DNA from: a bacterium
Lineage (GTDB): Bacteria; Arandabacterota; Arandabacteria; Arandabacterales; Arandabacteraceae
Assembly (NCBI GenBank): GCA_029933125.1
Contig: JAOZOU010000001.1
Coordinates: 392,702-456,701 of the forward strand
Length of the DNA: 64,000 nt
Direction: 5' to 3'
The notes beneath the pieces were generated by a model. The model saw only the letters and a list, made by a program, of their open reading frames with translations, did not search any database and was not told the DNA's origin. The translations under genes and the position numbers were made by a program. This document shows, in pieces, positions 31,233-52,877 of the stretch; position 1 is the stretch's first letter, and every line of letters starts with the position of its first letter.

Positions 31233-31252
31233 GCAAATGGGGATTCAGAGGA

Positions 31253-31849: not shown

Positions 31850-31906
31850 CTAAGAAGTTCACCAGATTTTGAAAGCCTTAGTGCACAAGCACATTCCTGG
31901 GACTTC

Positions 31907-33058: not shown

Positions 33059-33063
33059 CTCGT

Positions 33064-35422: not shown

Positions 35423-36544
35423 ATGAAACTATTCTTCCACCATATTGCAATTGGGTTTTGTGTTATCATCACTTCCGGGATATGTTTTGGCGCAGCCTCA
35501 ATAACCTCCGTCACGGCAATTGATACCCCAGACGATGCTGGTGAGAGCATTATGCTTGAGTGGGAGGCGACGGGGGAGAGCCCCATAATCATAACGCGGG
35601 CGCCTAAGCCTGAAGGCCCCTTCGAAGTGATCGGTAAAGGACTGGCATCTGATGGTCATTACACTGACAATGGCGTAGAGGATGGGAAACCCTATTACTA
35701 CCGCATTGGAATTGTCACTGATCACGATACGACTTATACCACCGCAGCAGGGCCTGCCATATCCAAAAGTAACTGGTTTCGTAAGCATCGCCTCAATGCT
35801 CTGATCCTCACAATCCTAATGTTCGCACTTCTTGTCTACTTCATTGAGGCAGCGAAGAAGGGTAAGAACCTTTACATAAGGCGCATAGCAGGACTGAGTG
35901 CGCTTGAGGAGGCAATAGGCAGAGCAACTGAGATGGGAAAGAAGATTCTCTATATTCCTGGTATCCTAAGTATCAGTGAGATTCAGACAATTGCAAGCCT
36001 TTCCATCTTGGGATACGTGGCCAAACTCACTGCTACCTATGGTGCTAACATGGAAGTCCCCAACATCGATCCCCTCACATATTCGGCTGCCCGTGAGACA
36101 GTGAAGCAATCCTATATGGAAGCAGGTAAGCCTGATAAGTTCAGGGATGATATGGTCACATACATTACCTATGATCAGTTTGCTTATGCAGCTGCGGTTA
36201 CCGGTAAGATGGTAAGAGAGAGGCCTGCTGCTCACTTCTTCATAGGTTCCTTCTATGCTGAATCCCTGATTCTTGCTGAAACTGGCTACAGTACTGGCGC
36301 TATCCAGATTGCCGGCACAGCCGATCTTGCCCAGCTTCCCTTCTTCGTTACAACGTGCGATTACACTTTGATCGGTGAGGAACTCTATGCAGCAAGCGCT
36401 TACCTTTCACGTGAACCAGTGCTCCTCGGTAGCATAAAGGCGCAGGATATCATCAAGGCCATTCTTATGATGGTGATTGGCGCTGGAATCATAAGTTTCG
36501 CCTTTGGATCTGAGTTCATACGCAATCTTCTCCTCACAAAATAA
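35423..36544 (+). CDS. Membrane protein of unknown function with an Fn3-like ectodomain.
   Basis: It has a signal peptide, an extracytoplasmic domain of about 90 aa with W...YYYRIG hallmarks, a transmembrane helix, and a conserved-looking cytoplasmic domain of about 230 aa ending in a second hydrophobic helix. No family is recognised. Confidence 0.5.
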   Translation: MKLFFHHIAIGFCVIITSGICFGAASITSVTAIDTPDDAGESIMLEWEATGESPIIITRAPKPEGPFEVIGKGLASDGHYTDNGVEDGKPYYYRIGIVTDHDTTYTTAAGPAISKSNWFRKHRLNALILTILMFALLVYFIEAAKKGKNLYIRRIAGLSALEEAIGRATEMGKKILYIPGILSISEIQTIASLSILGYVAKLTATYGANMEVPNIDPLTYSAARETVKQSYMEAGKPDKFRDDMVTYITYDQFAYAAAVTGKMVRERPAAHFFIGSFYAESLILAETGYSTGAIQIAGTADLAQLPFFVTTCDYTLIGEELYAASAYLSREPVLLGSIKAQDIIKAILMMVIGAGIISFAFGSEFIRNLLLTK

Positions 36545-36563
36545 GAAACGCCAGCCTTGCGTA

Positions 36564-36770
36564 TCACTCTGTTCCCGTGCTTTTCCCCTGCAATGCTGGC
36601 CATTCAGCGAATGCGAGGTAAAAGATCATGACAAGATTAACAATTGGTAGGACCATGAGAAGTGAAAGCGCTCCAGGGAATCCAGCCTTGCTGAAGATAC
36701 GCCAGAATGGTAAGACCACAATAAGCGCTATCAGAATCATCGACAAGAGTATGCTGCCTGCAGTCACCAT
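36564..36770 (-). CDS. Small two-transmembrane membrane protein of the DUF5684-like type.
   Basis: It is 68 aa with the motif WRIFSKAGFPGALSLLMVLPIVNLVMIFYLAF, which is typical of a widespread family of tiny membrane proteins. Confidence 0.45.
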   Translation of the reverse strand: MVTAGSILLSMILIALIVVLPFWRIFSKAGFPGALSLLMVLPIVNLVMIFYLAFAEWPALQGKSTGTE

Positions 36771-36892
36771 CTTCGCCCTCCTTTGCAGAAACGATTAGCG
36801 CGGCACCCAATGTGGGCAATATGTTTCTCATACTGCTATTTAGCTCCACAATACCGCCGGGAGATCTGAGAAACTCCTGATGAGTGTGTAGC

Positions 36893-37486
36893 CTAAGGTT
36901 TCCACACCTCCCAGACTTTGCCAACAAGCCCTGGTCCAGGCTTCAGAGTAACCTGCCCGACCTGCCACCCCGATGGTGTCACCTCGCCTGTGTTCCGCAC
37001 ATGCTGAAATGCCTTTATCTGACGAATGAGCTCATCAGGATTACGGCCCACCTCCGGTGTCAGGACTTCCATTGCACGAATCACAAAATCGGGATCGATT
37101 ATGAAACGCCCTCTGATATCAACACCAGCCGCTTCATCATAAACACCATAGATTGCTCCAATCCTGCCGCCGGCATCCGAAAGCATGGGGAAGGGAACAC
37201 CACCCTCAACCATCTTTGAAAGCTCCTGCTCCTGCCAGATCTTATGAACGAAACGGCTATCGGTACTCATTGAGAGCACTTCAACTCCCATTGCCTTAAG
37301 CTCCTGATAGCGGGCAGCGACCGCTGCCAATTCTGTCGGTCAGACAAATGTGAAGTCACCAGGATAGAAGCAAAGCACAATCCATTGACCCTTGTAGTCG
37401 GATAGTTTTACTGGCTTGAATCCATAGTCTCTTACAAATGCGGTAGCTTCAAAATCAGGAGCTGGTTTGCCAACTCTTGCAATCAT
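36893..37486 (-). CDS. Selenocysteine-containing peroxiredoxin (AhpC/Prx1 family, PrxU-like), with an in-frame UGA at the peroxidatic Cys position.
   Basis: Two collinear in-frame ORFs are separated only by TGA at 37340..37342. The joined product reads [14 protein letters not shown]...[34 protein letters not shown], which matches the FYPxDFTFVCPTE peroxiredoxin active site. An AGGAGG ribosome-binding site lies 7 nt before the ATG at 37486. The C-terminal resolving Cys is absent (GEVTPSGW), so this is a 1-Cys/Sec type. Confidence 0.8.
37313..37328 (-). promoter_or_regulatory. Putative SECIS hairpin 11 nt downstream of the in-frame UGA.
   Basis: The mRNA reads UGA-CCGACAGAAUU-GGCAGC-GGUC-GCUGCC, giving a perfect 6-bp GC-rich stem with a GGUC apical loop (G/U-containing, as in bacterial SECIS elements). 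Confidence 0.45.
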
Positions 37487-37827
37487 CCCGACTCCTCCTG
37501 AAAGCTTTCTTCCCCCGTATGCCTCTCCCGCTTCTTCCTCAGGGAGCAGCGGACCCCTTGCAGGCTGGACACATCCATCCTTAAGCTCTGCCATAGCCAC
37601 CTCCTCGTTTAAGAGCGACCTATTCTCGAAATGACACCTTTGGCTAATCTTGAATCCGTAACAATCCTGTCAACTTTCTCCTTATAGCTCAAACCAAAAC
37701 CTCGTAAAGGTCAATCGGATTTTTGGCAATCGCAATATCGCTGGGCCCAAGGGTAGGATGCCAACATGCGGATATACTTACCAAGGGAAAGATCCTAGCC
37801 CTGCATGAAGAACTGCTAACCCTCTTC

Positions 37828-37850
37828 GAAGGCTCCGTCAAGGAGCCTTC
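37828..37850. other. Perfect 9-bp inverted repeat (GAAGGCTCC-N5-GGAGCCTTC) in the intergenic region between the M1 peptidase and the peroxiredoxin. It may be a terminator or a regulatory hairpin.
   Basis: The repeat is visible in the sequence and has no flanking U-tract on either strand. Confidence 0.3.
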
Positions 37851-37882
37851 CTTCGGCAAGATGCCTTATCCTAGGCCAAACC

Positions 37883-40606
37883 TTACTTGATCAGCACGAG
37901 CTTGCGCCTTAGGGCACGGTCATCAACCTTGAGCAGGTACCAGTAGACACCTGATGCAACATTCTCCCCCCACCTGTCGCGCCCATTCCAGCTAACAGTA
38001 TGGTTCCCCGCATCCATGACTTCATCCACGAGTCTTGTCACTTCTCTCCCTCTCACATCGTAGATGCTGAGGAGAACACGAGCCCTATTCGAGAGACTAT
38101 ACTTAATGCGGGTCGCGCTCACGAATGGGTTTGGAGTATTTTGCCCAAGCCAGATACGGGGTTTGATTTCATCAGCTATGCCACTCGGATTATAGGGCTC
38201 ACCAAAGAAGTTGCGAAGGATGAACTCACAATTGCTACGCATTGCATCATGGTCATAGCGATAAGGACGCCCAGCGATGAAAACGAACTGTCCGCCGTCC
38301 GCTCGCTGAGTTCCGCCAGAGGAAGGATTGCGCCAGACACCAAGCCCACGTGGGATTGGAAACATATTATATTGCATGAACAATACAGTGCTTTCATCGC
38401 CAACAGATGCTGAATCAAAAACAGCATTATAGGTCTGGGAACCGCCCGAGCGCGGCATATCAACGAGTCCAGGATAAACGCTCGTTGCTCGGCGTGTTGT
38501 GTTCTCCTTATCCTCCGCCCACTGGATGTCAAGATAGGCTCTTAAGGCTTCGTAAATAAAGTCCTGACCCATGCGCGTAAGAAGCAAGACGTTGCCGCCC
38601 GCCTTAAGATATGAAACTATTGGAGCATTGTACCAGGCAGTTAGATCACCATTGTAGTTGTTGCCTACCCAGACAACCGATGAGAATTGCTTGAGTGTAT
38701 CGGCGGGAATGTCACCATGTCCAAGAGGTTGTGGGAGCGGTGAAGGATAGCCACCAGCAGGCTCAGCAAAGATATCCCAGAAGGATATGTCAAGTGACCC
38801 CCAGAAGATACTATCTTCATAAGCCGAAGTTATCTCAGTGCCATAAGTGTTCCAATCAACCCCATTGACAACAAGGATACCACGATCGAAGGTTGCATCC
38901 TTAAGCTCCTCAGAGACCATGCGCAGAATCCATTCATCCTTGTCAAGTTGAACATCCTGTGGTTCATCACTTACAAGAAGCGTAAATTGCTGACTCGCAA
39001 GGCTATCTTCGACAACGAGTGTGGTCTCCCCTGATGCTGTTGTAACACTTATCTGGATAGGCATATTAAAGATCTGATTCTCTTGTAGCCGGTCAATCGT
39101 CAACGATATTTCATAGCCATCTACAACTGGCTGATAATCCCAAGAAAACATGTAATGCGGGAAACCCTCCCCATATATCCACTCCTGGAAGAAGGCATCG
39201 AAATCTCTTCCAGCAACCTGCTCGCAGATATCTCTGAATTGCTCCGTGGTTGCTGAACCATACTGATATTGGCTGTTATAATAAGCATGGAGAATATCGA
39301 AGAAAGTTGAATCCCCCACAATTCCCCTCAACATATGGAGTACCCAGGATGCTTTGTTGTATGACAGATCCGGATCGAAGATACGATCCCAATCAGAAAG
39401 GTCGGGCACGTAGATTGTGCCTGGTCCGTAATACTTAGCATATTCCATTTGATTCTTATATTCGTCCCACCCGTATTCATGTTCTGCCCAGAGCGCTTCA
39501 CTGTATGTTGCAAAGCCTTCATTGAGCCAGATGTGATTGAAGGTATTGCAGGTTATCATATCTCCCCACCACTGATGCGAAAGCTCATGAAGCACAAGAT
39601 ACTCGCCCCAGCCCCAGAGGCTGGTAATCGTCTGGTGCTCCATGCCACCACCCCATGTAAACTCCGCCTGACCGTATTTTTCCTCGATGAAGGGGTACTC
39701 ACCATACAGATTGGCAAAAAGACCAATCATATCGGTTATCTTGGCATAGTTGGTTACACAATCAGGATAGTGGCTAGCGAAAACATAGTGGCGAATTTCC
39801 ATCGAATCAGTAGGTGAATAGTGATAGTAATCGGAATAGACGATGTAGGGATGAATTGCTACAGAGACAAGATAAGTAGCTATGGGATAGCCTTCGTGCC
39901 ACTTGTAGGTCTTTGTGCTTCCATTGTCGATGGTTGCTCTGAGAACCCCGTTTGAAGCATCAATAAGATTGCTAGGCACTGTGATCCAGATATCAACCGA
40001 GTCTGGCTTATCGTTGGGATAATCCTTGCAAGGCCACCACGTTCTTGCCCCAAATGGCTCACTCAGGCTCCATATCATATCCTCGCCATCGAAGGACTCG
40101 AAAGCAAAGGCACCAGCCGAAGACGATGGAGTGCCATGATAATAGACTGTAAAGGAAAAGGCCTCACCTGTTGAATAGGAGCGGTCAAGATTGACAGTGA
40201 GGATGTCGTTGGCATGGCTGAAGGTGAGATTACCGCTCGCAGATGTGATACTGTCCACAGTCATGTTGGAATAGAGGTCAACATCGACTTGAGAAAGCGG
40301 TCCAGTAGTAACCTCAGCCCTCATCTCGACCCCGCCTGAAACCGTTTGAGTTGCTGGATCTATGTTGAGATCAAGATGATAGTACTTGGCATCGTAGCAA
40401 TTCTGATTTGGCGTAGGCTCCGTTGCAAGAGCCTCCATGCGGGCAAAGAAACGTGCCTTTGCCTCCGCAACCTGGCAGGCTATGTCACCAGGGCGCTCTG
40501 GTTGTATCCACCTTGGCTGGGGTTGTGCAAGCCCAAGCACAGAGAAAGAAATCACGAAGGCAACAAGAAAGCAAAGCTTGAAGACCAAGTGAGTTTGATG
40601 TCCCAT
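37883..40606 (-). CDS. Secreted M1-family zinc aminopeptidase with a T9SS-type C-terminal sorting domain.
   Basis: The HEXXH-X18-E zinc motif is present (VLHELSHQWWGD...WLNEGFATY). It has a signal peptide (start placed at MGHQTHLVFKLCFLVAF). The C-terminus is NPFVSATRIKYSL...LLSIYDVRGREV...GVYWYLLKVDDRALRRKLVLIK. Confidence 0.85.
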   Translation of the reverse strand: MGHQTHLVFKLCFLVAFVISFSVLGLAQPQPRWIQPERPGDIACQVAEAKARFFARMEALATEPTPNQNCYDAKYYHLDLNIDPATQTVSGGVEMRAEVTTGPLSQVDVDLYSNMTVDSITSASGNLTFSHANDILTVNLDRSYSTGEAFSFTVYYHGTPSSSAGAFAFESFDGEDMIWSLSEPFGARTWWPCKDYPNDKPDSVDIWITVPSNLIDASNGVLRATIDNGSTKTYKWHEGYPIATYLVSVAIHPYIVYSDYYHYSPTDSMEIRHYVFASHYPDCVTNYAKITDMIGLFANLYGEYPFIEEKYGQAEFTWGGGMEHQTITSLWGWGEYLVLHELSHQWWGDMITCNTFNHIWLNEGFATYSEALWAEHEYGWDEYKNQMEYAKYYGPGTIYVPDLSDWDRIFDPDLSYNKASWVLHMLRGIVGDSTFFDILHAYYNSQYQYGSATTEQFRDICEQVAGRDFDAFFQEWIYGEGFPHYMFSWDYQPVVDGYEISLTIDRLQENQIFNMPIQISVTTASGETTLVVEDSLASQQFTLLVSDEPQDVQLDKDEWILRMVSEELKDATFDRGILVVNGVDWNTYGTEITSAYEDSIFWGSLDISFWDIFAEPAGGYPSPLPQPLGHGDIPADTLKQFSSVVWVGNNYNGDLTAWYNAPIVSYLKAGGNVLLLTRMGQDFIYEALRAYLDIQWAEDKENTTRRATSVYPGLVDMPRSGGSQTYNAVFDSASVGDESTVLFMQYNMFPIPRGLGVWRNPSSGGTQRADGGQFVFIAGRPYRYDHDAMRSNCEFILRNFFGEPYNPSGIADEIKPRIWLGQNTPNPFVSATRIKYSLSNRARVLLSIYDVRGREVTRLVDEVMDAGNHTVSWNGRDRWGENVASGVYWYLLKVDDRALRRKLVLIK

Positions 40607-40836
40607 GGCATACTCCTTCCTGTTTAGAAACTGCGAGCGTTGCACAAATGGCTTAGCCAGATAATTCTCACACATCAAACTGCAACAGTTCAATTATACC
40701 ACAACCAGGCACTTTTGCATAGACGCATAGGTGCGCATTACCCCAGGTTGGGGTTGGAATTGTATCGAGCAAGAAAAGGGGATATCGGAGGCGCCCGTCC
40801 TGTTCGTTGGCTGATGATTGAGCCTATTGCGAGAAG

Positions 40837-42408
40837 CTACTTGACAACACCGATCTTAACCACCAAACTTCTCTGGCGTGTCTTTATCTGGCAGAAGTAG
40901 ATTCCCGAGCTAATGCGAGAACTTCCACCCTCTAAAGTGCTTAGATCAAGCAGGAGAGCATTGCTCATCCCATCCTGAATGGGTCTAAGTGAGCATATGA
41001 ATCTACCCATGATATCATAGAGCCTTGCAGACCTCACGGATTGCGCGGACAAAGTTTCAGGGAGCTCGAGAACCATACCTCTGTCACTCAGGCGCTTACA
41101 AGAAAGTGTACGCGGTAGGTAATCGGATGATGCCTTCCAGCCGTGGACTTCCAAGCCGTTATCTTGCCGAGAAGCGAGACTTTCGCCAGCCAGATCGCGT
41201 GGCCTAATCCTTGAACGGCAAGCAGGATTGGTAAGCACCTCATCAATATTAGCTACCTTGAGCCTCTTCCCTACAGCGTAGTCGATAATGTCAGATAGCA
41301 TGCTTGTCTCGATACACCACAATCCGTAGCAGGTATCGGCAACAACATGATTGTTGAGGATATACCACAAGCCATCGTCGGCGGCAGCATCGATATATTG
41401 CCGATAATGATTGAGAAGCCAGTAATCCTGGCTGCAATAAGACTTGAGGAAACATCGATTCATTAGGATCGGAAAGCGATTTAATGCATCATCCCCAAGC
41501 CTGCATGACTCGTAATAGTGGCGTACACTATCAATAACTGTATCGTTGTATGCAGAATAGGGAACGGCAAAGTGCTTAACAGGAAATCCCATCTTCTCCA
41601 GTATTTCCTTGGATAGCGTGAGCTCCTTCATCAAACTGTCACCGCTTATCTCAGTGAGTCTTGGATGCGTCATACTGTGACTGCCGATATCCCACCCGGC
41701 TGCCTGGAGTGCATGCAGTTCATTCCAAGTCAAATATCCGGGCTTTTCAAGCCACGTTGGGACAACATAGGCAGTTGCTGTCACATTCTTGCTTTCAAGA
41801 AGCGGCAGAGCGTATTCATAGAGGCTGCTTGAGCCATCATCGAAGGTGAGGGTGAGCACCCCAGTGTATCCTGAAACCGCCACTCTTCGCGTTAGTGTCC
41901 TGCCATCGCCCAGGTGAATAGTCACACGGACAGCATAGTCAATGGGTTGAGTGAAGGTGTGGGTGACCTTAATGCCCGTCGCATCAACGATACCATCATT
42001 TTCAAAATCCCATAGGATCTCGCTTTCGCCCTCAGGATCAAGGATCACTTCAAAATCAACAGCGAAGGGAACTACACCCCAATTGGTAGAAGCTTTAATT
42101 TTGACCTGTGATGTGGGCTCTGTGCAACCCGTCGGCTCAACGGGAGCTGCTGCTTGAGTGTCCGAATAAAGGGGTACCGCGAGAAGCATGGTAATACCTA
42201 AAGCAGCTGCTATGGAAAGTACAAAGGCCCACCCGCTTACGTTTCCCCCAGCTTTAACAAAAGATAGGTCAGGTGGGGTGCCATGATCCTGGTCTGGCCT
42301 TGCCTGTTTAGGCCCCTTGTTACAAAGGTGGGCAGGGATGGCTGTTAAGGCTTTTCTCAGGGGATTCGAGACCTCGGAAAATGGGGCATTGCTCTCCATG
42401 ACACGCAT
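40837..42408 (-). CDS. Secreted polysaccharide deacetylase (NodB/CE4 domain) with a PKD-like domain and a T9SS-type C-terminal sorting domain.
   Basis: The NodB motifs LTLTFDDGSSS and WDIGSHSMTHPRL are present. A PKD-like segment (ILWDFENDGIVDATG) precedes them. The C-terminus is LYDIMGRFICSL...SGIYFCQIKTRQRSLVVKIGVVK. The start codon is uncertain. Confidence 0.75.
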   Translation of the reverse strand: MRVMESNAPFSEVSNPLRKALTAIPAHLCNKGPKQARPDQDHGTPPDLSFVKAGGNVSGWAFVLSIAAALGITMLLAVPLYSDTQAAAPVEPTGCTEPTSQVKIKASTNWGVVPFAVDFEVILDPEGESEILWDFENDGIVDATGIKVTHTFTQPIDYAVRVTIHLGDGRTLTRRVAVSGYTGVLTLTFDDGSSSLYEYALPLLESKNVTATAYVVPTWLEKPGYLTWNELHALQAAGWDIGSHSMTHPRLTEISGDSLMKELTLSKEILEKMGFPVKHFAVPYSAYNDTVIDSVRHYYESCRLGDDALNRFPILMNRCFLKSYCSQDYWLLNHYRQYIDAAADDGLWYILNNHVVADTCYGLWCIETSMLSDIIDYAVGKRLKVANIDEVLTNPACRSRIRPRDLAGESLASRQDNGLEVHGWKASSDYLPRTLSCKRLSDRGMVLELPETLSAQSVRSARLYDIMGRFICSLRPIQDGMSNALLLDLSTLEGGSSRISSGIYFCQIKTRQRSLVVKIGVVK

Positions 42409-42573
42409 TCTCCCTTCCCTGGTAGAATGTAAGTGGATCCCATTGGCTCAAAGCCATGGTGATGTCATCTTTTTTCACCATGTCCCGCACCGAGCTTCAT
42501 TCCGACTTCTACTACCCTCCTTTAATCAAATTATCACATCCTTGTCAAGTAGCGAAAGTCAAAGCGGGTTGCA

Positions 42574-42602
42574 TTGAAATGCAGGCGCATTTATGGTAAA
42601 AT
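42574..42602 (+). promoter_or_regulatory. Predicted sigma-70 promoter for the C25 peptidase gene.
   Basis: TTGAAA (-35), a 17-nt spacer and TAAAAT (-10) are followed by a GGGAGG ribosome-binding site before the ATG at 42678. Confidence 0.45.
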
Positions 42603-42677
42603 GGCAAAAATAGATAGCGAGGTCAGATCTGATTCGTATCCTCGCCCCGCATAGACCACCGAGCTGGGAGGATAGCT

Positions 42678-45600
42678 ATGCGTAAGTCATCCCCGATCTT
42701 TTTGTTACTCAGCCTCTTTGCAGTCACTTCAGTAGCAGGTCCCCCTTCCCCAAAGTGGGTAGGGTTAGGAGGTAAGCCCTATCAGGCACAACCCCAAGTT
42801 GAAGTCAGCACTCAATTCTCTGAAGAAATTGTCATCCAGGTCAACATGGCAGGCTTCATTGCAGACCGCGTTGAGTCAAAAGTCGGTTGGTTTGCATCGA
42901 TTGAGATACCCGGCTGTGGCCAGACCAATGCGATTGGCAAAGCCAGACTTCCAGTTCTAAGGCGTGCCATTGAGATACCTCAGGGAGCAGCTCCTAATGT
43001 CGAGGTCATAGAATACACTACCACCACATACGCACTCGCCGATCTCAACCTTCCGCCAAGGATCTACCCAGTTCAACCCCCGATTGAGAAGATTCCAGGA
43101 GCCAGGCAAAGAGCTCCGTTTAAGATGTCCGAATCTTTTTATGCCTCCTCCAAGCCCTATCCTTCCTACAAGGCATGCATTGTTGAGATTGGGCAGATGC
43201 GTGGGCACAGATTTGCTGTTCTCGAGATCCCTGCAGCTATTTACATCCCAGCCTCAGGTACTTTGGAGATTGTGACAAACATAGGTTTGAGAGTCACCGT
43301 TAAAGGAGCGGATGAAGCAGCCACACGAGCAACAATTGATCGTTACGCTTCACCCTATTTTGAAGCCATTGCCTCAAAAGCACTTCTTAACTACAAGCAT
43401 CCGACAATTAAGGCCATCCCTCAAGCGCCTGTCGGCTTTCTTGTCATCACTTCACCAGACTACTACACAGAAATTCTCCCACTTGCTGAGTGGAAGAGCC
43501 AGCGAGGCTATTACACCACTGTCACTCAAACACCAGACATACCAGGCGGCGCAACTACGACAGCGATCAAGTCCTACATTCAAGATGCCTATGAGAATTG
43601 GGATGTCCCGCCAACCTTCGTGCTCCTGGTTGGAGATGTCGATGCCATTCCCAACTGGACAGGAACCGAGATTGACAATCCTCCAACCGATCTGTATTAC
43701 ACCACCATGACTGAACCCGACTACATCCCCGACATTGCAATTGGACGTATCTCAGTATCAAGTGCTACCGAAGCACAGGCTGCGGTCGGAAAGATCCTCA
43801 ACTATGAGAAGCGCCTTTTTAGCCACACCTCATGGCTTAAAAAAGCGGTCTTCATGGCCTCTGAAGACAACTGGGACATAACAGAGGGCACCCACAACTA
43901 TGTCATATCCACCTATATGGATCCTGCAGGTTTCACATCTCTGAAGCTATATTGCCACACCTACAATGCTACAACCCAGGATGTCAGCGATGCTTTCAAT
44001 GAGGGAACAGGCCTTGGAATCTACTCAGGTCATGGTGCAACGACCTACTGGGCGGATGGACCTCAATTCATGCAAAGTAACGTTGCTGCCCTAACTAATC
44101 TCGATATGTATCCCTTCGTTCAGAGCTATGCTTGCCTCACAGGGAGATATACCGAAGCCGAATGCTTCGCCGAAACATGGATCAGGCAGGCTGACAAAGC
44201 TGCAGTTGGCTTCTGGGCATCATCGGTGACCTCCTACTGGGATGAGGATGACGTACTTGAGAAGGGTGTTTTCAAGGCACTCTTCGAAGATAGCCTTACC
44301 TGGATTGGCGGGATGATAGACCAGGGCAAGTGGCATCTTTATGAATATTATGGAGGTGCTGGCTCAACCAGGCGCTATTATGAGATGTATAATCTCCTTG
44401 GGGATCCATCAGTTGATATTTGGACAGATGAGCCCCACACTATGGATGTTGCCTATGCAACAGCCATCCCGGTTGGTGCGACGAGTTACGAAGTCCATGC
44501 GAGCGAGAATTCAACCCCTCTTCCAGATGCAATGGCTTCGCTTTTCTGGCCAGGTACACTCTTCGGCAGTGGCTATACGAATTCGAGCGGTGATGCAATG
44601 CTCGACCTCAATCCAAGCCCGAATGAGCCAGGTGAGATGATTCTCACCCTGACACACCACAACTTCACTCCTTTTAGTGATACGCTTCAAGTTGTTGTCC
44701 CTGCTACTGTCGTGATAGATCCGGATACGATTGAAGTTGGGGTCACAACAGCAGTTAGTGTGGCTGTGCTTGATACGCTTTCTGCTCCAGTGGAAAGCGT
44801 CGAAGTGACAATTGATGGTTGGGGAATTGAACCGCCTCTGCATGATACTACAGATGCTTCAGGCCAGGCCTACTTCAGCATTAGCGCCCCATACGGCGAG
44901 GCTCTCTCGGTCAAGGGAAGCAAACTCAATCAATCCTATGATCTCTTCAATGATTCGCTATATGTTGTCGGAGCAATTGCCCTACCCAACCCTGCGATTG
45001 AAGCTCGTGTTGATGCCGTTGGTCTTGTCGGCGCTCTCACACCCGATTTTGAGGGAACGATCGTGGGTAGAAGCGACCACGCAGGCCTCGACATCTTTGC
45101 CAGAGGCTGTGGCATTGACACTTCAGCTTCTTCATCCTCAGACTCAGTCATAGTCGCTGCCACGCCAGATTGTGTCGGTCAAGTCAAGGTTGCTTTAGCT
45201 TCTCCAGGCTATGAGGTCTATGAAGATGAGATCAGCGTGATCATTGCCTACGGAACACTTGCAGGCACAGTACTGGACTCAACCACAGCTCAACCCATCG
45301 AAGGTGCCTTGCTGAGGGCTTATCCATCTGGCTCAGATACCTCGAGTACTCCATCATCCTTTGAAACGTTAAGTCAGGCTGATGGATCATATGCCTCGAG
45401 CGATAGTCTTCGCGTCGGCGCATATCAAGTCTATTCAACCAAGTTCGGCTATCTTGCTTCTGCTGGCTCAACCATGATCCGGGTGGGTGCAAACACCTAT
45501 GACATCCTCATGATTCCAGCCCCTGCTGGGATTGTCACCGGTACAGTGACTGAGGAAGGCACAGGTAAACCCCTGAGTGCTACACTTGAGATATATCGGA

Positions 45601-47459
45601 GTGATGACATGTCGCTTTACTCCGAGGCAACCTCGGATTCGCTTTCGGGTGGAAGTTACACAACTGAGCCCCTCCCTTACTTCACGTATGTGTTCACAGT
45701 AAAAGCAACGCACTACATAACAAAGAGCATCAATGTGACTGTTGCTGAAAGCACCCAAACAGTCAACTTTGAGCTTACACCCACTGAGGGCAATCTGCTT
45801 GTAATCGATGATGACACAGGGGATTTGCTTGCCGAGGTGAAGGTGGGTGAGAAAGGTGAAACCTTATCAAGCCTCACAAGGGCACTTGACTACGAGGCTA
45901 AATCCTCGGCTAGTCTCATCGCTGAGGATCTCGCCTCGCTTGGCTATGATGTGACAACTCAGAGTTCAGCGGCAACCGATCCAGCTACCTGGCAAGACTA
46001 CGACCTTATCATCTGGAGCTCAGGTGATGATACTTCCCCTGTTTCTGTTTCATCTTACCGTAGCAATCTCAACTCCTATGTTGCATCGGGGGGCAAACTT
46101 CTCATCGAGGGCGGTGAGATTGGCTATGATGCTGCTTCAAGCCCTGGTTATCCAAATCTCGCCGATACCACCCTCCATATTGTGGAGTGGCAGCATGATT
46201 CATCCGGAGATCTTTCACTCGCCATGCCAAATCATCCAGTCGCTACAACTCCGAACATTCTACCTTCTACCATAACGATGAGCTATGTTGGATACGGTGA
46301 TGAGGATGCTTTGACGGGTGATGCACAAACCCAGGCCATCTTTGAATGGAGTTCCTATCCTGGACTCGCTGGTGTGTTCGCATATGACAATAACCCTGAT
46401 ACCACAAGCTGCCAGATAATCTTCTTCTCCTTCGACTACTCAAATGCGGCTGATTCAACTTCTCGAGTCAATCTACTTGAAAACGCCGTTTCCTATCTTC
46501 TGAGACCCGAGCCCGGCGCTGAGGGTTCAATCAGTGGCATCGTTGAACTCTATGGCGAGACAAACTATGAGGGCACGATCGTCAGGCTTAGCCCTATGGG
46601 ACTTGCCGACACTACGGATGCAGCTGGTAACTATTACATCTCAGGTCTCTTTGATGGTGCATACAAGGTTACCGCAACAAAGCAAGGTTTTGCTGATTCG
46701 AGCCGAACAGTTGTGATTTCGGGTGGATCACACGTCGGCGATGTCAATTTCACTCTTTACCCAGTAATAGAGTACATGGACAGTCCAGAGATCGCCATAC
46801 CCGATAATGATCCAGCTGGCATAAGGGCTTACATCAATGTCGATGCCGACCAGCCAATTGCTTCCGTCGATTGTTATGTCAACATCTCCCACACTTATGT
46901 TGGTGATCTCATAGTTGAGCTCACATCGCCGGAAGGATCGACTGTCAGGCTTCACAATCGAACAGGTGGATCAAGTAATGACATAGTAACCTGGTACGAT
47001 ACGGATACTGAGCCTGATGGTCCTGGAACAATGTCTGACTTTACAGGTGAGATTGCAGCAGGCCAATGGGAGCTCTGGGTAAGCGATCAAGCTGGTGCAG
47101 ATACTGGAACGCTCCATACCTGGGGACTTCATCTAAGCTTCCCTTGGACAAGTGCAGGGCTAAGTCAAGGCACAGAAATTTACGTTACCCGTCTTATAGG
47201 TATAAGCCCCTTGCCGTTATCAAGCTGCGCCAGCTTCACTTTTTCCCTTGCAAAGGCTGAGCAGGTGGATATAGCAATTTACAATGTTTGTGGGCAGCGC
47301 CTTGCAGAGATCACTTCTGCAAAGTACGAACCTGGGCTTCATTCGCTCATCTGGAGAATAGAGAATCAAGAAAGACAGAGTTTAGCAAGCGGTATTTACT
47401 TCTGTCGTTTCAAGGCGGGTGAGTATCAAACTACAAGGCGCATCGTCATAATACGGTAA
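42678..47459 (+). CDS. Giant secreted gingipain-like cysteine peptidase (family C25) with CarboxypepD_reg-like repeats, a proprotein-convertase P-domain and a T9SS-type C-terminal domain.
   Basis: It has a signal peptide and a propeptide. The C25 catalytic region is FLVITSPDYY...LLVGDVDAIPNWTG, with His in YSGHGATTYW and Cys in SYACLTGRYTE. Three GT(V/I)xD-type beta-sandwich repeats follow. A P-domain-like segment reads VNISHTYVGDLIVELTSPEGSTVRLHNRTGG. The C-terminus is SGIYFCRFKAGEYQTTRRIVIIR. Confidence 0.85.
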   Translation: MRKSSPIFLLLSLFAVTSVAGPPSPKWVGLGGKPYQAQPQVEVSTQFSEEIVIQVNMAGFIADRVESKVGWFASIEIPGCGQTNAIGKARLPVLRRAIEIPQGAAPNVEVIEYTTTTYALADLNLPPRIYPVQPPIEKIPGARQRAPFKMSESFYASSKPYPSYKACIVEIGQMRGHRFAVLEIPAAIYIPASGTLEIVTNIGLRVTVKGADEAATRATIDRYASPYFEAIASKALLNYKHPTIKAIPQAPVGFLVITSPDYYTEILPLAEWKSQRGYYTTVTQTPDIPGGATTTAIKSYIQDAYENWDVPPTFVLLVGDVDAIPNWTGTEIDNPPTDLYYTTMTEPDYIPDIAIGRISVSSATEAQAAVGKILNYEKRLFSHTSWLKKAVFMASEDNWDITEGTHNYVISTYMDPAGFTSLKLYCHTYNATTQDVSDAFNEGTGLGIYSGHGATTYWADGPQFMQSNVAALTNLDMYPFVQSYACLTGRYTEAECFAETWIRQADKAAVGFWASSVTSYWDEDDVLEKGVFKALFEDSLTWIGGMIDQGKWHLYEYYGGAGSTRRYYEMYNLLGDPSVDIWTDEPHTMDVAYATAIPVGATSYEVHASENSTPLPDAMASLFWPGTLFGSGYTNSSGDAMLDLNPSPNEPGEMILTLTHHNFTPFSDTLQVVVPATVVIDPDTIEVGVTTAVSVAVLDTLSAPVESVEVTIDGWGIEPPLHDTTDASGQAYFSISAPYGEALSVKGSKLNQSYDLFNDSLYVVGAIALPNPAIEARVDAVGLVGALTPDFEGTIVGRSDHAGLDIFARGCGIDTSASSSSDSVIVAATPDCVGQVKVALASPGYEVYEDEISVIIAYGTLAGTVLDSTTAQPIEGALLRAYPSGSDTSSTPSSFETLSQADGSYASSDSLRVGAYQVYSTKFGYLASAGSTMIRVGANTYDILMIPAPAGIVTGTVTEEGTGKPLSATLEIYRSDDMSLYSEATSDSLSGGSYTTEPLPYFTYVFTVKATHYITKSINVTVAESTQTVNFELTPTEGNLLVIDDDTGDLLAEVKVGEKGETLSSLTRALDYEAKSSASLIAEDLASLGYDVTTQSSAATDPATWQDYDLIIWSSGDDTSPVSVSSYRSNLNSYVASGGKLLIEGGEIGYDAASSPGYPNLADTTLHIVEWQHDSSGDLSLAMPNHPVATTPNILPSTITMSYVGYGDEDALTGDAQTQAIFEWSSYPGLAGVFAYDNNPDTTSCQIIFFSFDYSNAADSTSRVNLLENAVSYLLRPEPGAEGSISGIVELYGETNYEGTIVRLSPMGLADTTDAAGNYYISGLFDGAYKVTATKQGFADSSRTVVISGGSHVGDVNFTLYPVIEYMDSPEIAIPDNDPAGIRAYINVDADQPIASVDCYVNISHTYVGDLIVELTSPEGSTVRLHNRTGGSSNDIVTWYDTDTEPDGPGTMSDFTGEIAAGQWELWVSDQAGADTGTLHTWGLHLSFPWTSAGLSQGTEIYVTRLIGISPLPLSSCASFTFSLAKAEQVDIAIYNVCGQRLAEITSAKYEPGLHSLIWRIENQERQSLASGIYFCRFKAGEYQTTRRIVIIR

Positions 47460-47732: not shown

Positions 47733-49727
47733 ATGTTGCTCAAGTTTACCCCTTCGAGTGTCGATAAGACATGTGGAGGTGTCTACACTCGGAGGAGAAT
47801 CTTGTCCTCAGAGACAACAGTTGCTCGTGACCCATTTGAGGACCTCCTGCTCAAGGAAGGGCTGGTAACCGAGGAGCAGCTCAAGCGCGCCCACCGCATT
47901 ATTGCACGAATGCAGCATCCCCGACCAGTCGGGGAAGTGCTCGTGCAAATGGGTCAACTAGCGCGCTCAGAGCATGAGCGTATCCTCCGCCTTTACCGTT
48001 CCCAACTCAGTATTGTCAAAATCCTCGAGGAAGAAGGTGCACTCGATGCGAAAAAGGTGGCTCGCTATGAAAAGCTCAAGGCTGACAATCCTCATTACAG
48101 CGAGCGTGAACTCCTGGTCGGGAGCGATCTCGTAACTGAGGAACAATTCCTTAAGGCTCTTTCAGTCAAGCATGATATCCCTTACGTCGAACCCGACGTT
48201 AGCCTAGTTGATACGAAGCTTCTCGACAAGGTATCCATCACTTACCTCATTCGCAACCAAGCCCTTCCCTTCAGAGTTAGCGACGGACATCTCAACGTCA
48301 TAATGGCAGATCCTCTCAATGCAGAGCTTATTCAGGAGCTTGAGCGAACATATCACATGCCCGTAAGGGCATGTACTGCGCCATCAAACAAGATTGTCGA
48401 TGCCATCAAGACGCTTGAAAGATTGCGCGACTCTGGCGAAGACGTAACAACAACCCTTGAATACCATGAGATCCATGAAACACCTGCCAGTGACGACTCC
48501 AGCGAAGGGGCAATAAGAATAGTCGATCACCTCCTCTACGAAGCTATCAAGTTGGGAGCAAGTGATCTCCACATAGAACCCATGAGGAGCAAGATAAGGG
48601 TAAGGGTAAGGGTTGATGGCGTGCTCCGCCATCTCACCGATCTCCCCGTCGATTTCACGCCCAGGGTTATTTCACGTGTGAAGATTCTCGCTTCCATGGA
48701 CATAGCGGAGCGCCGCCTTCATCAGGACGGGCGCTTTTTCGTTCGTACCGATGGTAGAGACATTGACATAAGGGTTTCATCCTATGCTTCCATATCAGGT
48801 GAGACCCTTGTGCTACGCCTTCTTGATCGCCGGCGTGGGCTTATTCCGATTGACTCACTTGGTTTTGAACCCAGGGTTCTTACGACCTTGCGTGAGATTG
48901 TCCTAAGGGCTTCATCTGGACTTATCCTAGTTACAGGTCCCACCGGTAGCGGCAAGACGACAACCATGTATTCGTTTGTTGATTATATAAACGACGAAAC
49001 CATCAAGGTCATCACATGTGAGAATCCAGTGGAGTATGTTCTCGAGGGCACAACCCAGTGCTCGGTCAACGAAAAGACAGGACCAACATTTGCAGACTCT
49101 CTCAAGGCAATCGTAAGACAGGATCCGGATGTGATTGTTGTAGGTGAGATTCGCGATCAAACAACAGCATCTATGGCCGCCGAGGCAGCCCTGACAGGTC
49201 ATATGGTCCTCGCAACATTTCATACTGAGGATTCTGTCTCTGCCGTTATTCGCTTGCTTGACATGGGGCTTGAACCTTTTCTCGTATCTTCGACCCTACG
49301 CTGCGTAGTTGCCCAAAGACTTGTACGCAAGATCTGCCGCAACTGCATACAACCAGGCAGGTACACAAGAAGAGATTTACGCTACTTGGGACTTACAAGT
49401 GAGGATCTGAGTGGTATTCCCATAATGGAAGGAGCAGGCTGTGCAAAGTGCGGAGGATCAGGCTATAAGGGGCGCACAGGGATTCATGAAGTCCTTCTGC
49501 TCGATGATGACTTCCGTGATGCTATTCTACGCAAAGCCCCCTCAAAGGAACTGAGGATTGCAGCTCGCAAAATAAAGGGCTTCCTTACACTTCAGGAAGA
49601 CGGCATGCTCAAGGTTGTTTCGGGCATAACAACACTTTCTGAGATAGCTGACAACGCACCGCGCGATCCAGACGCACGTCCCGTTGCGATGATCCGCGAG
49701 GTCGCCGCTATGAGGAGGCTTAAGTGA
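47733..49727 (+). CDS. GspE/PilB/MshE-family secretion ATPase with N-terminal tandem MshEN-like (c-di-GMP-binding type) motifs. It is orphan, with no other T2SS/T4P genes nearby.
   Basis: It has Walker A (LVTGPTGSGKTT), Asp and His boxes, and a tetracysteine (CRNC...CAKCGGSGYKGR). The N-terminal region carries three repeats resembling the MshEN motif (FEDLLLKEGLVTEEQLKRAHRI, VGEVLVQMGQLARSEHERILRL, ERELLVGSDLVTEEQFLKALSV). Confidence 0.85.
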   Translation: MLLKFTPSSVDKTCGGVYTRRRILSSETTVARDPFEDLLLKEGLVTEEQLKRAHRIIARMQHPRPVGEVLVQMGQLARSEHERILRLYRSQLSIVKILEEEGALDAKKVARYEKLKADNPHYSERELLVGSDLVTEEQFLKALSVKHDIPYVEPDVSLVDTKLLDKVSITYLIRNQALPFRVSDGHLNVIMADPLNAELIQELERTYHMPVRACTAPSNKIVDAIKTLERLRDSGEDVTTTLEYHEIHETPASDDSSEGAIRIVDHLLYEAIKLGASDLHIEPMRSKIRVRVRVDGVLRHLTDLPVDFTPRVISRVKILASMDIAERRLHQDGRFFVRTDGRDIDIRVSSYASISGETLVLRLLDRRRGLIPIDSLGFEPRVLTTLREIVLRASSGLILVTGPTGSGKTTTMYSFVDYINDETIKVITCENPVEYVLEGTTQCSVNEKTGPTFADSLKAIVRQDPDVIVVGEIRDQTTASMAAEAALTGHMVLATFHTEDSVSAVIRLLDMGLEPFLVSSTLRCVVAQRLVRKICRNCIQPGRYTRRDLRYLGLTSEDLSGIPIMEGAGCAKCGGSGYKGRTGIHEVLLLDDDFRDAILRKAPSKELRIAARKIKGFLTLQEDGMLKVVSGITTLSEIADNAPRDPDARPVAMIREVAAMRRLK

Positions 49728-50584
49728 TGGACACTGAGACAATTGCTGTTGAGCCCCTTACTGATCAGATAAGGAAGGCGGTTGAGGCTGGAAAACTCTC
49801 TCTTCCGCCACTACCAAGAATCGTTAACCAGCTCGAGGAACTTCTTGCTGATAGTGAGCGAGCAAGTTCGAAGGAAGTCGCAAACCTCATACGCAATGAG
49901 CCTGCAATAGCAGCAAGTCTGCTGCGAATGGCCAATTCAGCTGCATTCGGTGGGCTTCATCCCATCTCCAATCTCACCCACGCTATAGCCCGACTGGGCT
50001 TCAAGCAGGTTTCATCTGTTGTGACAGCTCTGGCACATAGCAGCCACTTCCATTCTGATGATCCCGCAATGAAGCGCTGGCTCGAAACCCTCTGGGGCCA
50101 TGCAGTTGCAACTGCACTCGGAGCAAGAGCGGTTGCAAACCTTACGGCTGGTGATCCCGAAGAAGCCTTTATGGCTGGACTTTTGCACGATACAGGAAAA
50201 CTCCTCGTTCTTAAGGCAGTTGACTATATCGAAAACAAACGCAAGCTGGCGGTGGTCACGCCCACGGTGCTGGATGAGCTCATGGATATACTCCATACCG
50301 AACTTGGTCACCGCACACTTGTGGCCTGGCATCTACCTCAGGAGATTTGTGAGGTCGCTCTGCGGCATCACGATAAGAACCTTGATCTCGGTGACTCACT
50401 CATAATCCGCGTGCAGGTCGCTGATGCGATAGCTCGCAAGATAGGGGAACATCCTGAGCCGAGGCCAGACCTTGATCTCCTTGAGGTTCCTGCTGTTGAG
50501 CAGTTAAGCCTTGACGATATTGAGCTCGCAAGCTTGACCGTTGATCTTGAGGACGAGATTGCTGAGGTCAAACAGCTCCTCTAG
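49724..50584 (+). CDS. HDOD-domain protein translationally coupled to the GspE-like ATPase.
   Basis: HDOD hallmarks are present (LPPLPRIVNQLEELL, EPAIAASLLRMANSAAFG, GLLHDTGKL, HH). Its ATG overlaps the ATPase stop as ATGA. Confidence 0.75.
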   Translation: MMDTETIAVEPLTDQIRKAVEAGKLSLPPLPRIVNQLEELLADSERASSKEVANLIRNEPAIAASLLRMANSAAFGGLHPISNLTHAIARLGFKQVSSVVTALAHSSHFHSDDPAMKRWLETLWGHAVATALGARAVANLTAGDPEEAFMAGLLHDTGKLLVLKAVDYIENKRKLAVVTPTVLDELMDILHTELGHRTLVAWHLPQEICEVALRHHDKNLDLGDSLIIRVQVADAIARKIGEHPEPRPDLDLLEVPAVEQLSLDDIELASLTVDLEDEIAEVKQLL

Positions 50585-50630: not shown

Positions 50631-51674
50631 TCATGAGACAACTATGTTGAGCTTCTCGCCGCACTCACTGCAAGATGTATCTTTGAGGCCAACTTTGCGG
50701 GATGTAAATCCATAGCGCTCTATGACGAGGTTCCCACACTTCGGACACCATGTATGCTCATATCTGCCACCCGGCAGATTTCCAGCATAGACATACTTAA
50801 GCCCCCTGGCTTTTCCGATTTCAAGCGCTTTGAAGATACTTTCGGGCTGCGTCCAGGGCTTGCTTCTCTGTTTATAGTGAGGATAGAAACGCGAAACATG
50901 CCACGGAATCTCCGGTGAAACCGATACTATGAAGTCCGCGATCTCAGTTATTTCATCAGGTGAGTCATTCTCCCCCGGAATCAAGAGGGTTGTCACCTCA
51001 AGGAAGATGCCAGCTTCGTGCATTGCCTTGATCGCCTCAAGCACAGGGCGTAGGCGTGCGCCACATCTCTCTCGATAGAATCGATCACTGAAGGCTTTGA
51101 GATCAACATTGGCTGCATCGATAACTCCTGCCATCTTATCAATTGCATCTCGTGACTCATAGCCATTGGTTACAAAGATGTTCTTGAGACCAAGATCGTG
51201 CGCAATCCTTCCGGTATCGATTGCAAATTCGAAAAATACCGTCGGCTCAGTATAGGTATACGCTATGCTCTGGCAACCCCTCTGGCGGGCGTCACCAGCG
51301 ATCTCCTCAGGTTGAAACTCTTCACCATAAATCCTGCCGCCGTCATGGGAAACCTGGGATATCTCCCAGTTCTGGCAGAAATCACAGAAGAAATTGCACC
51401 CAACAGTTGCAATTGAATACGTCATCGTGCCTGGCAAGAAATGATAGAGAGGCTTTTTCTCAACGGGATCTATCGCTCGCGTGATGAGCTTACCGTAGAC
51501 GAGCGAATAGAGCGTGCCGTTGGAGTTAAGTCTGACTCCACAGATTCCCCGCTTGCCATCGGCTATCACACAGCGATGGGCACAGAGAAAACAAAGCACA
51601 TCGCCATTTTTCTTCTTCCAGAGCATTGCTTCCTTCATGCTTGCCTCCACGCAACATGGTAGCCATTTCACCAT
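50631..51674 (-). CDS. AmmeMemoRadiSam-system radical SAM enzyme (AmrS; pyruvate formate-lyase activating enzyme-like).
   Basis: It has CNFFCDFCQN (CxxxCxxC), an N-terminal Cys pair (CFLCAHRCV) and C-terminal CPKCG...CSECG. The overall similarity is to the AmrS family. Confidence 0.75.
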   Translation of the reverse strand: MVKWLPCCVEASMKEAMLWKKKNGDVLCFLCAHRCVIADGKRGICGVRLNSNGTLYSLVYGKLITRAIDPVEKKPLYHFLPGTMTYSIATVGCNFFCDFCQNWEISQVSHDGGRIYGEEFQPEEIAGDARQRGCQSIAYTYTEPTVFFEFAIDTGRIAHDLGLKNIFVTNGYESRDAIDKMAGVIDAANVDLKAFSDRFYRERCGARLRPVLEAIKAMHEAGIFLEVTTLLIPGENDSPDEITEIADFIVSVSPEIPWHVSRFYPHYKQRSKPWTQPESIFKALEIGKARGLKYVYAGNLPGGRYEHTWCPKCGNLVIERYGFTSRKVGLKDTSCSECGEKLNIVVS

Positions 51675-52223: not shown

Positions 52224-52877
52224 TTGCTGACCGGCAAGTCCATCCCTTTCTTCCGAAGATCTTTTACACTGCTTCTCCTTCTGCCCCTTTTTGGGCAAGT
52301 TGCCAATGCATCCCCACCCCCTCCATCACGCTTTTTCTCTGTTGATGCGGGATATGTCACAACAAGTAGCTCAAACTACGGTAACGGCTTAGTTTATGGA
52401 ATAAGCATCATAGAGGGTGAAGGGAGAATTGGCTTTGCAATTGTGACGTCAGCCTTCTCAAACTCGATCTTCTATGATGCAGAAGTTATGTCGGGTGAGG
52501 CACAAAAGATTTACCGTTATGAGGAGAAGTTCTCCGACTTTTACATTACCATTCTAGCAACTTTTCGACCCAGTATCTTCGATAGCAGCAGCCGGATCCT
52601 TGGCGGAATTGGTCCTCAGGTCCATTTCCTGAGAGCAACCAAGTACTATATCACTGATGGCTATTCTGTATCAGCTCGGGATTTCCGCCTTGGCATGGGC
52701 ATCTGGTTAAGATTCCATAGGCAGATCCACATCTTCGGGAATACCGCTATCGTGATAACTGCCACCCATTCGTGGGCTCAAGGCGCAGGTGAAAATATTG
52801 AACCATTTGAATACACGGTTCCGGATGAGGGATTGGCTTTCCCAGCAGTAACTGCTGGGCTTGCTTTCCCTTTCTAG
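52224..52877 (+). CDS. Putative outer-membrane beta-barrel protein.
   Basis: It has a signal peptide, alternating hydrophobic beta-strand pattern, and a C-terminal ...AGLAFPF aromatic terminus typical of outer-membrane proteins. Confidence 0.4.
   Translation: MLTGKSIPFFRRSFTLLLLLPLFGQVANASPPPPSRFFSVDAGYVTTSSSNYGNGLVYGISIIEGEGRIGFAIVTSAFSNSIFYDAEVMSGEAQKIYRYEEKFSDFYITILATFRPSIFDSSSRILGGIGPQVHFLRATKYYITDGYSVSARDFRLGMGIWLRFHRQIHIFGNTAIVITATHSWAQGAGENIEPFEYTVPDEGLAFPAVTAGLAFPF

Follow-up and report, generated by a model that had tools for sequence, protein, structure and literature searches.

A 64-kb stretch of a bacterial genome (contig JAOZOU010000001.1 of assembly GCA_029933125.1; hereafter the window) encodes a PilB/GspE-superfamily ATPase overlapped at its 3′ end by a gene for an HDOD-domain protein. 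We propose that the two genes form a module that controls motility at the flagellum and that the ATPase is not an orphan pilus motor, a reading to which we assign a probability of about 0.45. The genes are translationally coupled, their pairing is conserved beyond the family of closely related ATPases, and the pair is enriched beside motA/motB, fliL and late flagellar genes. Judged by this context, the module would represent a PilB-superfamily ATPase under the control of a cofactor, the partner being new and the genomic link unexpected.

The first gene is a genuine open reading frame (ORF; 47733-49727, plus strand) for a 664-residue ATPase of the T2SSE family. Pfam T2SSE (PF00437) covers residues 258 to 638 (E value, 1e-111; 373.7 bits against a gathering threshold of 24.9), and MshEN (PF05157) covers residues 147 to 233 (E value, 2e-16; 60.3 bits). 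The ATG at 47733 is merely the start of the longest ORF. Translation likely begins at TTG 47802, yielding 641 residues, because a Shine-Dalgarno (SD) sequence, GGAGGA, precedes this codon at 47791-47796 and gene callers give 641 residues, both for the window sequence and for its nearest homologues. The gene is thus taken to span 47802-49727; residue numbers below follow the 664-residue version. The second gene starts at 49724 or 49727 and ends at 50584 on the same strand. Its product, 285 residues when read from 49727, matches Pfam HDOD (PF08668) with an E value of 1e-42 and 146.4 bits, against a gathering threshold of 22.9, in agreement with a preliminary description made from the window alone, which had placed an HDOD signaling protein after the ATPase.

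At the junction, AAGTGATGG, the TGA stop codon of the ATPase gene occupies 49725-49727, and the HDOD gene can start at ATG 49727, with a 1-nt overlap, or at GTG 49724, with a GTGA overlap. An SD sequence for the HDOD gene, AGGAGG (49712-49717), lies 9 nt 5′ of ATG 49727. The overlapping stop and start (GTGATG, 49724-49729, plus strand) point to translational coupling, and at 17 of 23 orthologous loci the two genes share 4 nt (ATGA or GTGA), with GGAGG within the final ATPase codons. The overlap and coupling put forward in the preliminary description thus hold, but the junction reads GTGATG and not ATGA, as had been stated. A scan of the window for sigma-70 promoters and terminators performed no better than on shuffled sequence.

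The HDOD gene is a constant companion of the ATPase. At every family locus having DNA downstream of the ATPase gene (31/31), a gene for an HDOD protein of about 285 residues stands directly 3′ of it, compared with none of the 78 loci of ordinary PilB/GspE (P = 3e-23). These counts rule out chance adjacency of the two genes and answer the question, raised in the preliminary description, of whether GspE-HDOD pairs co-occur in other genomes. Two remote members of the wider clade, P0277 and P0346, also have an HDOD gene 2 to 4 nt downstream, followed at one of these loci by genes for BLUF and GGDEF-EAL proteins. The pairing had been called uncharacterized, and our search of 7.7 million open-access papers and 0.34 million preprints agrees: we found no description of an HDOD protein paired with PilB, GspE, MshE or T2SSE, nor of flagellar clusters with a PilB-like ATPase.

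The ATPase itself keeps the catalytic motifs of its superfamily. Walker A (GPTGSGKTT, residues 402 to 410; 48936-48962), Walker B (DPDVIVVGEIRD), the Asp box, the His-box histidines and a tetracysteine zinc site of the CxxC...CxxC type (C535, C538, C570 and C573; 49335-49451) are all present and are invariant in 27 aligned family members. These elements, most of which had been listed in the preliminary description of a secretion or pilus ATPase, predict that the catalytic chemistry is intact; the N2 domain and the C-terminal ATPase core span 48504-49646, as delimited by Pfam and alignment motifs.

By its sequence signatures, the family is nevertheless a clade distinct from canonical PilB/GspE. 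The hallmark RxPQDGR is changed to RRLHQDGR (48711-48734), with H330 at the position of a Pro found in 53/53 ordinary homologues, and the HTN(D) His box is changed to FHTED (49218-49232), with E499 where 50/53 ordinary homologues have Asn. S414/F415 and a one-residue insertion also discriminate between the two groups. So does a C-terminal tail of the type NAPRDxxxRP... (49650-49724), which also carries the SD sequence of the HDOD gene: its residues P643, R644, D645 and R649 do not vary within the family, and ordinary PilB/GspE proteins lack them. Family ATPases are 50 to 91% identical over their full length, versus 35 to 45% to ordinary PilB/GspE; the latter, recovered in the same scans, align only from about residue 96 and have no such tail. 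The window ATPase scores 494.4 bits with the GspE equivalog model TIGR02533 (cut-off, 630.25) and 487.6 bits with the T4aP PilB equivalog model TIGR02538 (cut-off, 675.65), and database labels on family proteins range from PilB to GspE/PulE and even TadA.

The family occurs in metagenome-assembled genomes (MAGs) of Acidobacteriota, Gemmatimonadota, Eisenbacteria and unclassified bacteria, and one of its sub-branches bears an N-terminal REC domain. We scanned genomes for related loci with an alignment of the core region, chosen for the clade-specific DIAERRLHQ; a metagenome scan added only about 11 family loci, most of them short. The remote relatives share the HQDG and HTED signatures and a related C-terminal tail, which together mark a wider HQDG/HTED clade. 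P0277 comes from a Syntrophaceae MAG and has its nearest homologues in MAGs of Hydrogenedentota, Thermodesulfobacteriota and Nitrospiraceae. Two further members of the wider clade, P0362 and P0503 (920 residues), have their MshEN-T2SSE part preceded by an N-terminal domain of about 300 residues that resembles the ParA/MinD/BcsQ ATPases and belongs to the same broad type as the flagellar regulator FlhG.

We compared the surroundings of family and ordinary loci by clustering their neighboring ORFs. Neighbors were assigned by tblastn with reference proteins, all-versus-all clustering and precomputed gene calls, and were counted within 10 kb at loci with at least 5 kb of flank. A Pfam-confirmed T2SSF platform gene is found near 38/78 ordinary ATPase genes and near 0/23 of the family (Fisher's P = 4e-6). 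The statement that no pilin, platform protein, secretin or prepilin peptidase lies near the window ATPase was likewise borne out: Pfam detected none of these, T2SSF included, among the window ORFs between about 250 and 56,200, while for the part from 56.2 to 64 kb we relied solely on how the syntenic loci L001 and L091 are annotated. A search of all frames of the 64-kb window for prepilin cleavage motifs was negative.

These results bear on the main alternative, in which the protein is a relocated or paralogous assembly ATPase for a type IV pilus (T4P), type II secretion or competence machine encoded elsewhere, with the HDOD protein as its cofactor and the flagellar neighborhood reflecting co-regulated organelles, as for MshE and the flagellum in Vibrio. 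The full PilB/GspE architecture, with every catalytic residue, the zinc site and an ND1 like those to which GspL or PilM binds, would suit such a role, as would the best matches of the protein, PilF, GspE and PilB. Moreover, only 64 kb of this genome is visible, and there are precedents for PilB cofactors whose genes lie outside pil operons (PMC8389850). The lack of T2SSF beside the family ATPases argues otherwise, as do the missing prepilin motif, the Pro-to-His and Asn-to-Glu changes at near-invariant hallmarks and the scores below both equivalog cut-offs. We regard a relocated assembly ATPase as a credible but rather unlikely explanation.

About half of the family loci have flagellar genes among their neighbors. 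MotA/MotB genes are near 10/23 family ATPase genes versus 1/78 ordinary ones (Fisher's P = 6e-7), and any flagellar gene is near 11/23 versus 3/78 (P = 2e-6), with the proviso that the loci are phylogenetically related, so that these tests overstate their independence. At least four different flagellar arrangements surround the pair, varying by lineage. In the first (L007, L013 and L095), flgK-flgL-fliW-csrA precede the ATPase gene, in some cases with its REC domain, and the HDOD gene, and motA-motB-fliL follow; at L007 the csrA stop codon overlaps the ATPase start within the flagellar operon. In the second (L089 and L018), fliL-flbD-motA-motB, a gene that we call gene X, and the ATPase-HDOD pair lie on one strand. 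In the third (L088, L090, L009 and L017), motB-motA diverge from the ATPase gene at the end of a flhF-fliA-flgF...flgK cluster. In the fourth (L002 and L093), motA-motB-flbD-fliD lie a few kilobases downstream of the pair, with more HDOD genes in between.

The window has a flagellar cluster of its own, which the preliminary description had missed. It occupies about 28 kb of the minus strand (254-28454), from FlgG through FliF, FlgC and FlgB to a sigma-54 response regulator and a PAS kinase. At L010, whose ATPase is 67% identical to that of the window, 1.3 kb separates the pair from a flagellar cluster that ends in FlgC, FlgB, the sigma-54 regulator, the PAS kinase and a small ORF. The window cluster has the same kind of end (24338-28454), followed by 19 kb of peptidases that are type IX secretion system (T9SS) cargo and of redox genes before the ATPase gene.

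Gene X encodes a protein of about 460 to 470 residues with a weak Arf/MglA-like small-GTPase N terminus and a weak GAF C terminus, both below the Pfam cut-offs. It adjoins motAB and the ATPase-HDOD pair at four loci (L089:8545-9960, L018:7740-9092, L007:18564-19928 on the minus strand and L013:15029-16390 on the minus strand), where its products are 57 to 65% identical; one of these loci is from a Terriglobia MAG and one from a Polarisedimenticolaceae MAG.

We next considered how the ATPase may be controlled. An AlphaFold2 (AF2) model of residues 34 to 262 has a predicted local distance difference test score (pLDDT) of 86 overall, with values above 90 in the first 200 residues. Its eight helices pair up into four hairpins, each made of a short and a long helix: M1 (residues 34 to 57), M2 (65 to 88), M3 (93 to 116) and M4 (123 to 146). 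An alpha/beta subdomain follows. The hairpin units thus number four, and not the three tandem motifs of the preliminary description. The M1 and M2 helices (residues 35 to 41 and 47 to 59, and 66 to 72 and 78 to 90) all have a pLDDT above 90, and the second helix of M1 carries the conserved R52 and R55, the latter family-invariant in a "RARRI" helix.

As modeled, this N terminus comprises an extra half-domain of the MshEN_N/ND0 type (M1-M2; 47832-47996) and one complete MshEN fold (M3-M4 plus ND1 at residues 147 to 233; 48009-48431). The half-domain was recognized from the AF2 model, the NCBIfam model NF053729, profile alignment and motif scores, and the complete domain from profiles, Foldseek, motif scores and Pfam. 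The top Foldseek match of the model was Vibrio cholerae MshE with cyclic di-GMP (c-di-GMP) bound (5HTL; E value, 5e-7; TM score, 0.73). The N-domain of Xanthomonas citri PilB in its complex with PilZ (7LKO) gave a TM score of 0.79, and the GSPII-B domain of PilF was also matched, each of the three aligning over about 141 of 229 columns. In profile searches, M3-M4 and the alpha/beta part aligned with complete MshEN domains of PilB and MshE (5zfr, E value of 4e-8; 5htl, 3e-4; also 7lko), and M1-M2 aligned with a helical pair of PilF (residues 307 to 382). Pfam, profiles, AF2 and Foldseek thus all identify the MshEN fold, a four-helix ND0 with an alpha/beta ND1.

The fold stands, but the ligand motif does not. 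The canonical c-di-GMP motif consists of two tandem 24-residue units, RLGxxhhxxGhhxxxxLxxxLxxQ, with a 5-residue spacer (PMC5013675). We scored the relaxed motif from the same study by Wang et al., which has 11 constrained positions and a background of 7 as given by unrelated helices of the same protein. M1, M2, M3 and M4 scored 8, 9, 7 and 7, and the spacer between M1 and M2 is of 7 residues. None of the four units keeps the RLG, G, L and Q positions intact: M1, M3 and M4 have no RLG triad (SIV in M3 and SER in M4), M2 has PVG instead, and G10 is replaced by Asp in M4. NF053729, a 53-residue model of the c-di-GMP motif, aligned with residues 37 to 85 at 28.9 bits, below its cut-off of 38. An intact relaxed motif was found in none of 121 family members, whereas the same scan, as a positive control, recovered intact motifs in most of the remoter MshEN-bearing ATPases.

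It has to be asked whether the N-terminal repeats nevertheless bind c-di-GMP or cyclic GMP-AMP directly, which would make the window protein the second-messenger-gated ATPase envisaged in the preliminary description. The MshEN fold is present twice over, M1-M2 match NF053729 with an E value of 7e-7, the best of the units, and Arg residues are conserved on the second helix of M1. P0277 and P0346 keep canonical motifs, one of them beside a GGDEF-EAL gene, and a PilZ protein encoded in the window's flagellar cluster indicates that c-di-GMP signaling exists in the organism. Conversely, several substitutions in the window protein are like those that abolish binding by XpsE (PMC5013675), one of them being identical (G11V), and other key positions, R38, G40 and L29 among them, are also changed, in addition to the loss of the RLG triads, the 0/121 count and the subthreshold NF053729 score. 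Direct binding by the window ATPase is therefore unlikely on sequence grounds, and we consider a second-messenger-gated ATPase improbable here. The proposal fares better for P0277 and P0346, whose intact motifs go together with an HDOD gene downstream. Because these remote members keep the canonical motifs, it seems that the ancestor of the wider clade had the c-di-GMP site and that the window lineage lost it.

The partner HDOD protein appears to have kept its own potential sensory site. H125, H154-D155, H190 and H214-H215 are invariant or nearly so in 24 aligned partners. A profile of the partners matches the Geobacter sulfurreducens HDOD structure 3HC1 (E value, 1e-33), with the conserved His and Asp residues aligned. 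In 3HC1, five His and one Asp coordinate a pair of iron ions (PMC12075610). The partner sequence has the same five-His, one-Asp set, and its dinuclear-metal pocket is predicted to be intact. The partners also share an acidic C-terminal helix (residues ~258 to 285, "...LTVDLEDEIAEVK", LxVDLEDE type), which is kept in the remote partners and in the fusion protein described below and is absent from the other HDOD protein of the window.

A conserved metal site might mean that the HDOD partner is an active metal-dependent phosphohydrolase, acting for instance on a nucleotide signal, with the ATPase merely co-regulated or regulated by the product. All five His and the Asp of an HD-type dinuclear site are in place, and weak matches to Pfam HD and TIGR HDIG were obtained. 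HDOD domains, however, are described as being without the phosphodiesterase activity of HD-GYP proteins; the partner has no GYP motif, and its matches are limited to HDOD and generic HD models. A phosphohydrolase also fits poorly with P0298, in which the HD histidine is gone although the partner-type architecture remains. We find this explanation very doubtful.

In P0298 (588 residues; L174:8001-9767, contig of 434 kb), a natural fusion, a CxxC...CxxC linker connects an N-terminal module of the family type with a partner-type HDOD domain. Its N-terminal part has all four hairpins and ND1 (E value of 7e-21 to the window ATPase), and its HDOD part includes the acidic C-terminal helix (E value, 3e-32). 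P0298 has no ATPase domain, and the HD histidine is replaced (LTKD). Such a Rosetta stone-type fusion points to the N terminus and the HDOD protein working together, and, with the HD histidine lost, an adaptor is more plausible than an enzyme. Two genes for methyl-accepting chemotaxis proteins lie 5 to 8 kb downstream of P0298. Another candidate fusion, P0183 (350 residues, HDOD plus a T2SSE fragment), was judged to be a gene-call artifact of overlapping frames.

In the mechanism that we favor, a hexameric-type ATPase of the HQDG/HTED clade and its dedicated HDOD protein would constitute a self-contained coupled module. The N terminus of the ATPase has two ND0-like helical bundles and one ND1, and the HDOD protein would act as regulatory cofactor by docking on this degenerate MshEN-type region, in parallel to PilZ on the ND0 of Xanthomonas PilB. 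It would thereby supply the sensory input, from a metal, redox state or small ligand, that the N terminus no longer gives, and the REC domain of some orthologues may add a further input. The output would be on flagellar motility, most probably on the stator and motor or on late flagellar assembly, and not on the polymerization of a pilus or pseudopilus.

Several points weigh against a role at the flagellum. All of the functional evidence is gene context, drawn from related loci as noted above, and the contact between the HDOD protein and the ATPase is one that we infer. In 12/23 family loci, including the window, whose flagellar cluster is 19 kb away, the pair is not flagellum-adjacent; for about half of the loci (the window, its closest relative L001 and the remote L172 and L175 among them), no flagellar gene lies within 8 to 10 kb. 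No flagellar partner protein was identified, and a search of the 450 nt 5′ of the ATPase gene at 28 loci for sigma-28 (TAAA-N15-GCCGATAA) and sigma-54 (TGGCAC-N5-TTGCW) promoters gave no consistent match. The fusion is known from one cluster representative, P0298, whose HD motif is degenerate. The analysis covers the 64-kb window and the related loci, so a pilus machine may be encoded elsewhere. Finally, we know of no mechanical substrate for a hexameric PilB-type motor without a PilC-like rotor.

A bolder version of flagellar control is that, in Acidobacteriota, Gemmatimonadota and related uncultured phyla, the flagellum has taken over a PilB-type motor that, together with a di-iron HDOD sensor, acts directly on the stator/FliL/MotAB assembly. 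The motor might insert, extract or lock stator units, or serve as an ATP-driven brake or clutch. We think that this is unlikely. If true, it would extend the known takeover of PilM/N/O in Campylobacterota to the pilus motor itself.

Other features of the window were recorded. Between flgG and fliA of its flagellar cluster, on the minus strand, lie genes for a second HDOD protein (1163-2050), FapA (2028-2987) and the small PilZ protein (2851-3279), and 1163-3279 has the look of a c-di-GMP/HDOD signaling block inside the flagellar operon. The region of 19 kb from the cluster to the ATPase gene (28899-47459) abounds in genes for large secreted enzymes bearing a C-terminal T9SS sorting domain, namely a metallophosphatase (28899-31232), an M1 peptidase (37883-40693) and a 1593-residue gingipain-like C25 peptidase (42678-47459); a PKD-polysaccharide deacetylase is also encoded there. 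Together with the flagellar genes, these enzymes indicate that the organism combines flagella with a T9SS. In the same region, a 2-Cys peroxiredoxin gene (36893-37600, minus strand) has an in-frame TGA (37342-37340) exactly at the peroxidatic cysteine, and 14 nt past this codon starts a perfect hairpin, GGCAGC-GGTC-GCTGCC, that resembles a bacterial selenocysteine insertion sequence element. Judging from these features, the gene probably encodes a selenocysteine peroxiredoxin, and ORF lists split it in two.

Directly downstream of the pair and convergent with it is a gene for a radical SAM enzyme of the AmmeMemoRadiSam system (50631-51674, minus strand; TIGR04337, 330 bits against 220). Beside it, no AMMECR1 or Memo gene was recognized; the genes found there encode a rubrerythrin, an unannotated 217-residue ORF product (52224-52877) and a DUF4213/DUF364 protein. 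Genes for a DUF6754 protein and an FMN reductase lie 5′ of the pair both in the window (35423-36544, plus strand) and at L002 (1232-2575), whose ATPase is 67% identical, and this recurrence is probably residual synteny and not a functional link.

To our knowledge, PilB/GspE ATPases are understood solely as rotary motors, which drive the assembly of pili or pseudopili by turning a PilC/GspF platform, and HDOD is among the commonest bacterial signaling domains still without an assigned mechanism. The obligate coupled pairing, found in many uncultured phyla (Acidobacteriota, Gemmatimonadota, Eisenbacteria, Hydrogenedentota, Thermodesulfobacteriota and Nitrospirota), gives each of the two proteins a concrete, testable partner. 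If the flagellar link is functional, the pair would include the first pilus-type motor ATPase with a role at the flagellum, and HDOD would gain a defined output. If it is not, the module still marks an ATPase clade that is wrongly auto-annotated as PilB, GspE or TadA.

Known systems share parts of this arrangement. Among HDOD proteins, SadB of Pseudomonas and GsmR of Xanthomonas affect flagellar motility, SadB being an adaptor for the ATP-dependent protease Lon, and both have the same domain as the partner, as does 3HC1. SadB differs in having a YbaK domain and no metal-binding histidines; none of the three is reported to be paired with a T2SSE ATPase, and the window partner has its own acidic C-terminal helix. 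A precedent for T4P parts taken over by the flagellar motor is found in the cage proteins PilM/N/O (FcpMNO) of Helicobacter and Campylobacter, which associate with MotB and control stator behavior (PMC10823254, PMC11870540). Those are structural proteins of the alignment complex in Campylobacterota, with no PilB-type ATPase or HDOD protein reported, whereas the flagellar link of the window pair is one of gene neighborhood.

As to the ATPase, the closest solved sequence is Thermus thermophilus PilF (6F8L, 8PDK; E value, 1e-108), which likewise has multiple tandem MshEN/GSPII modules before the ATPase domain, not all of which bind c-di-GMP. PilF has three complete GSPII domains and serves T4P and DNA uptake; the window ATPase has 1.5 such domains, other signatures, the C-terminal tail and an HDOD partner. 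V. cholerae MshE (5HTL; PMC5013675) has the same fold and the same domain order, MshEN followed by T2SSE, and its canonical 24-residue motifs are kept in remote members of the window clade. Unlike MshE, the window family has both motif pairs degenerate and a further ND0-like bundle; its genes have no msh or pil operon near them, and the HDOD partner is obligate. The best structural match is PilB of X. citri in the PilB-PilZ-FimX system (7LKO; PMC8389850). There the cofactor is PilZ linked to FimX and not an HDOD protein, a complete T4P machine is served, and PilB has a single ND0, canonical RxPQDGR and HTND and no coupling to the cofactor gene. The parallel lies in a PilB-type ATPase whose MshEN-fold ND0/ND1 is without the c-di-GMP motif: in Xanthomonas and Pseudomonas, PilZ binds to the motif-less ND0, and FimX takes over the sensing (PMC8389850).

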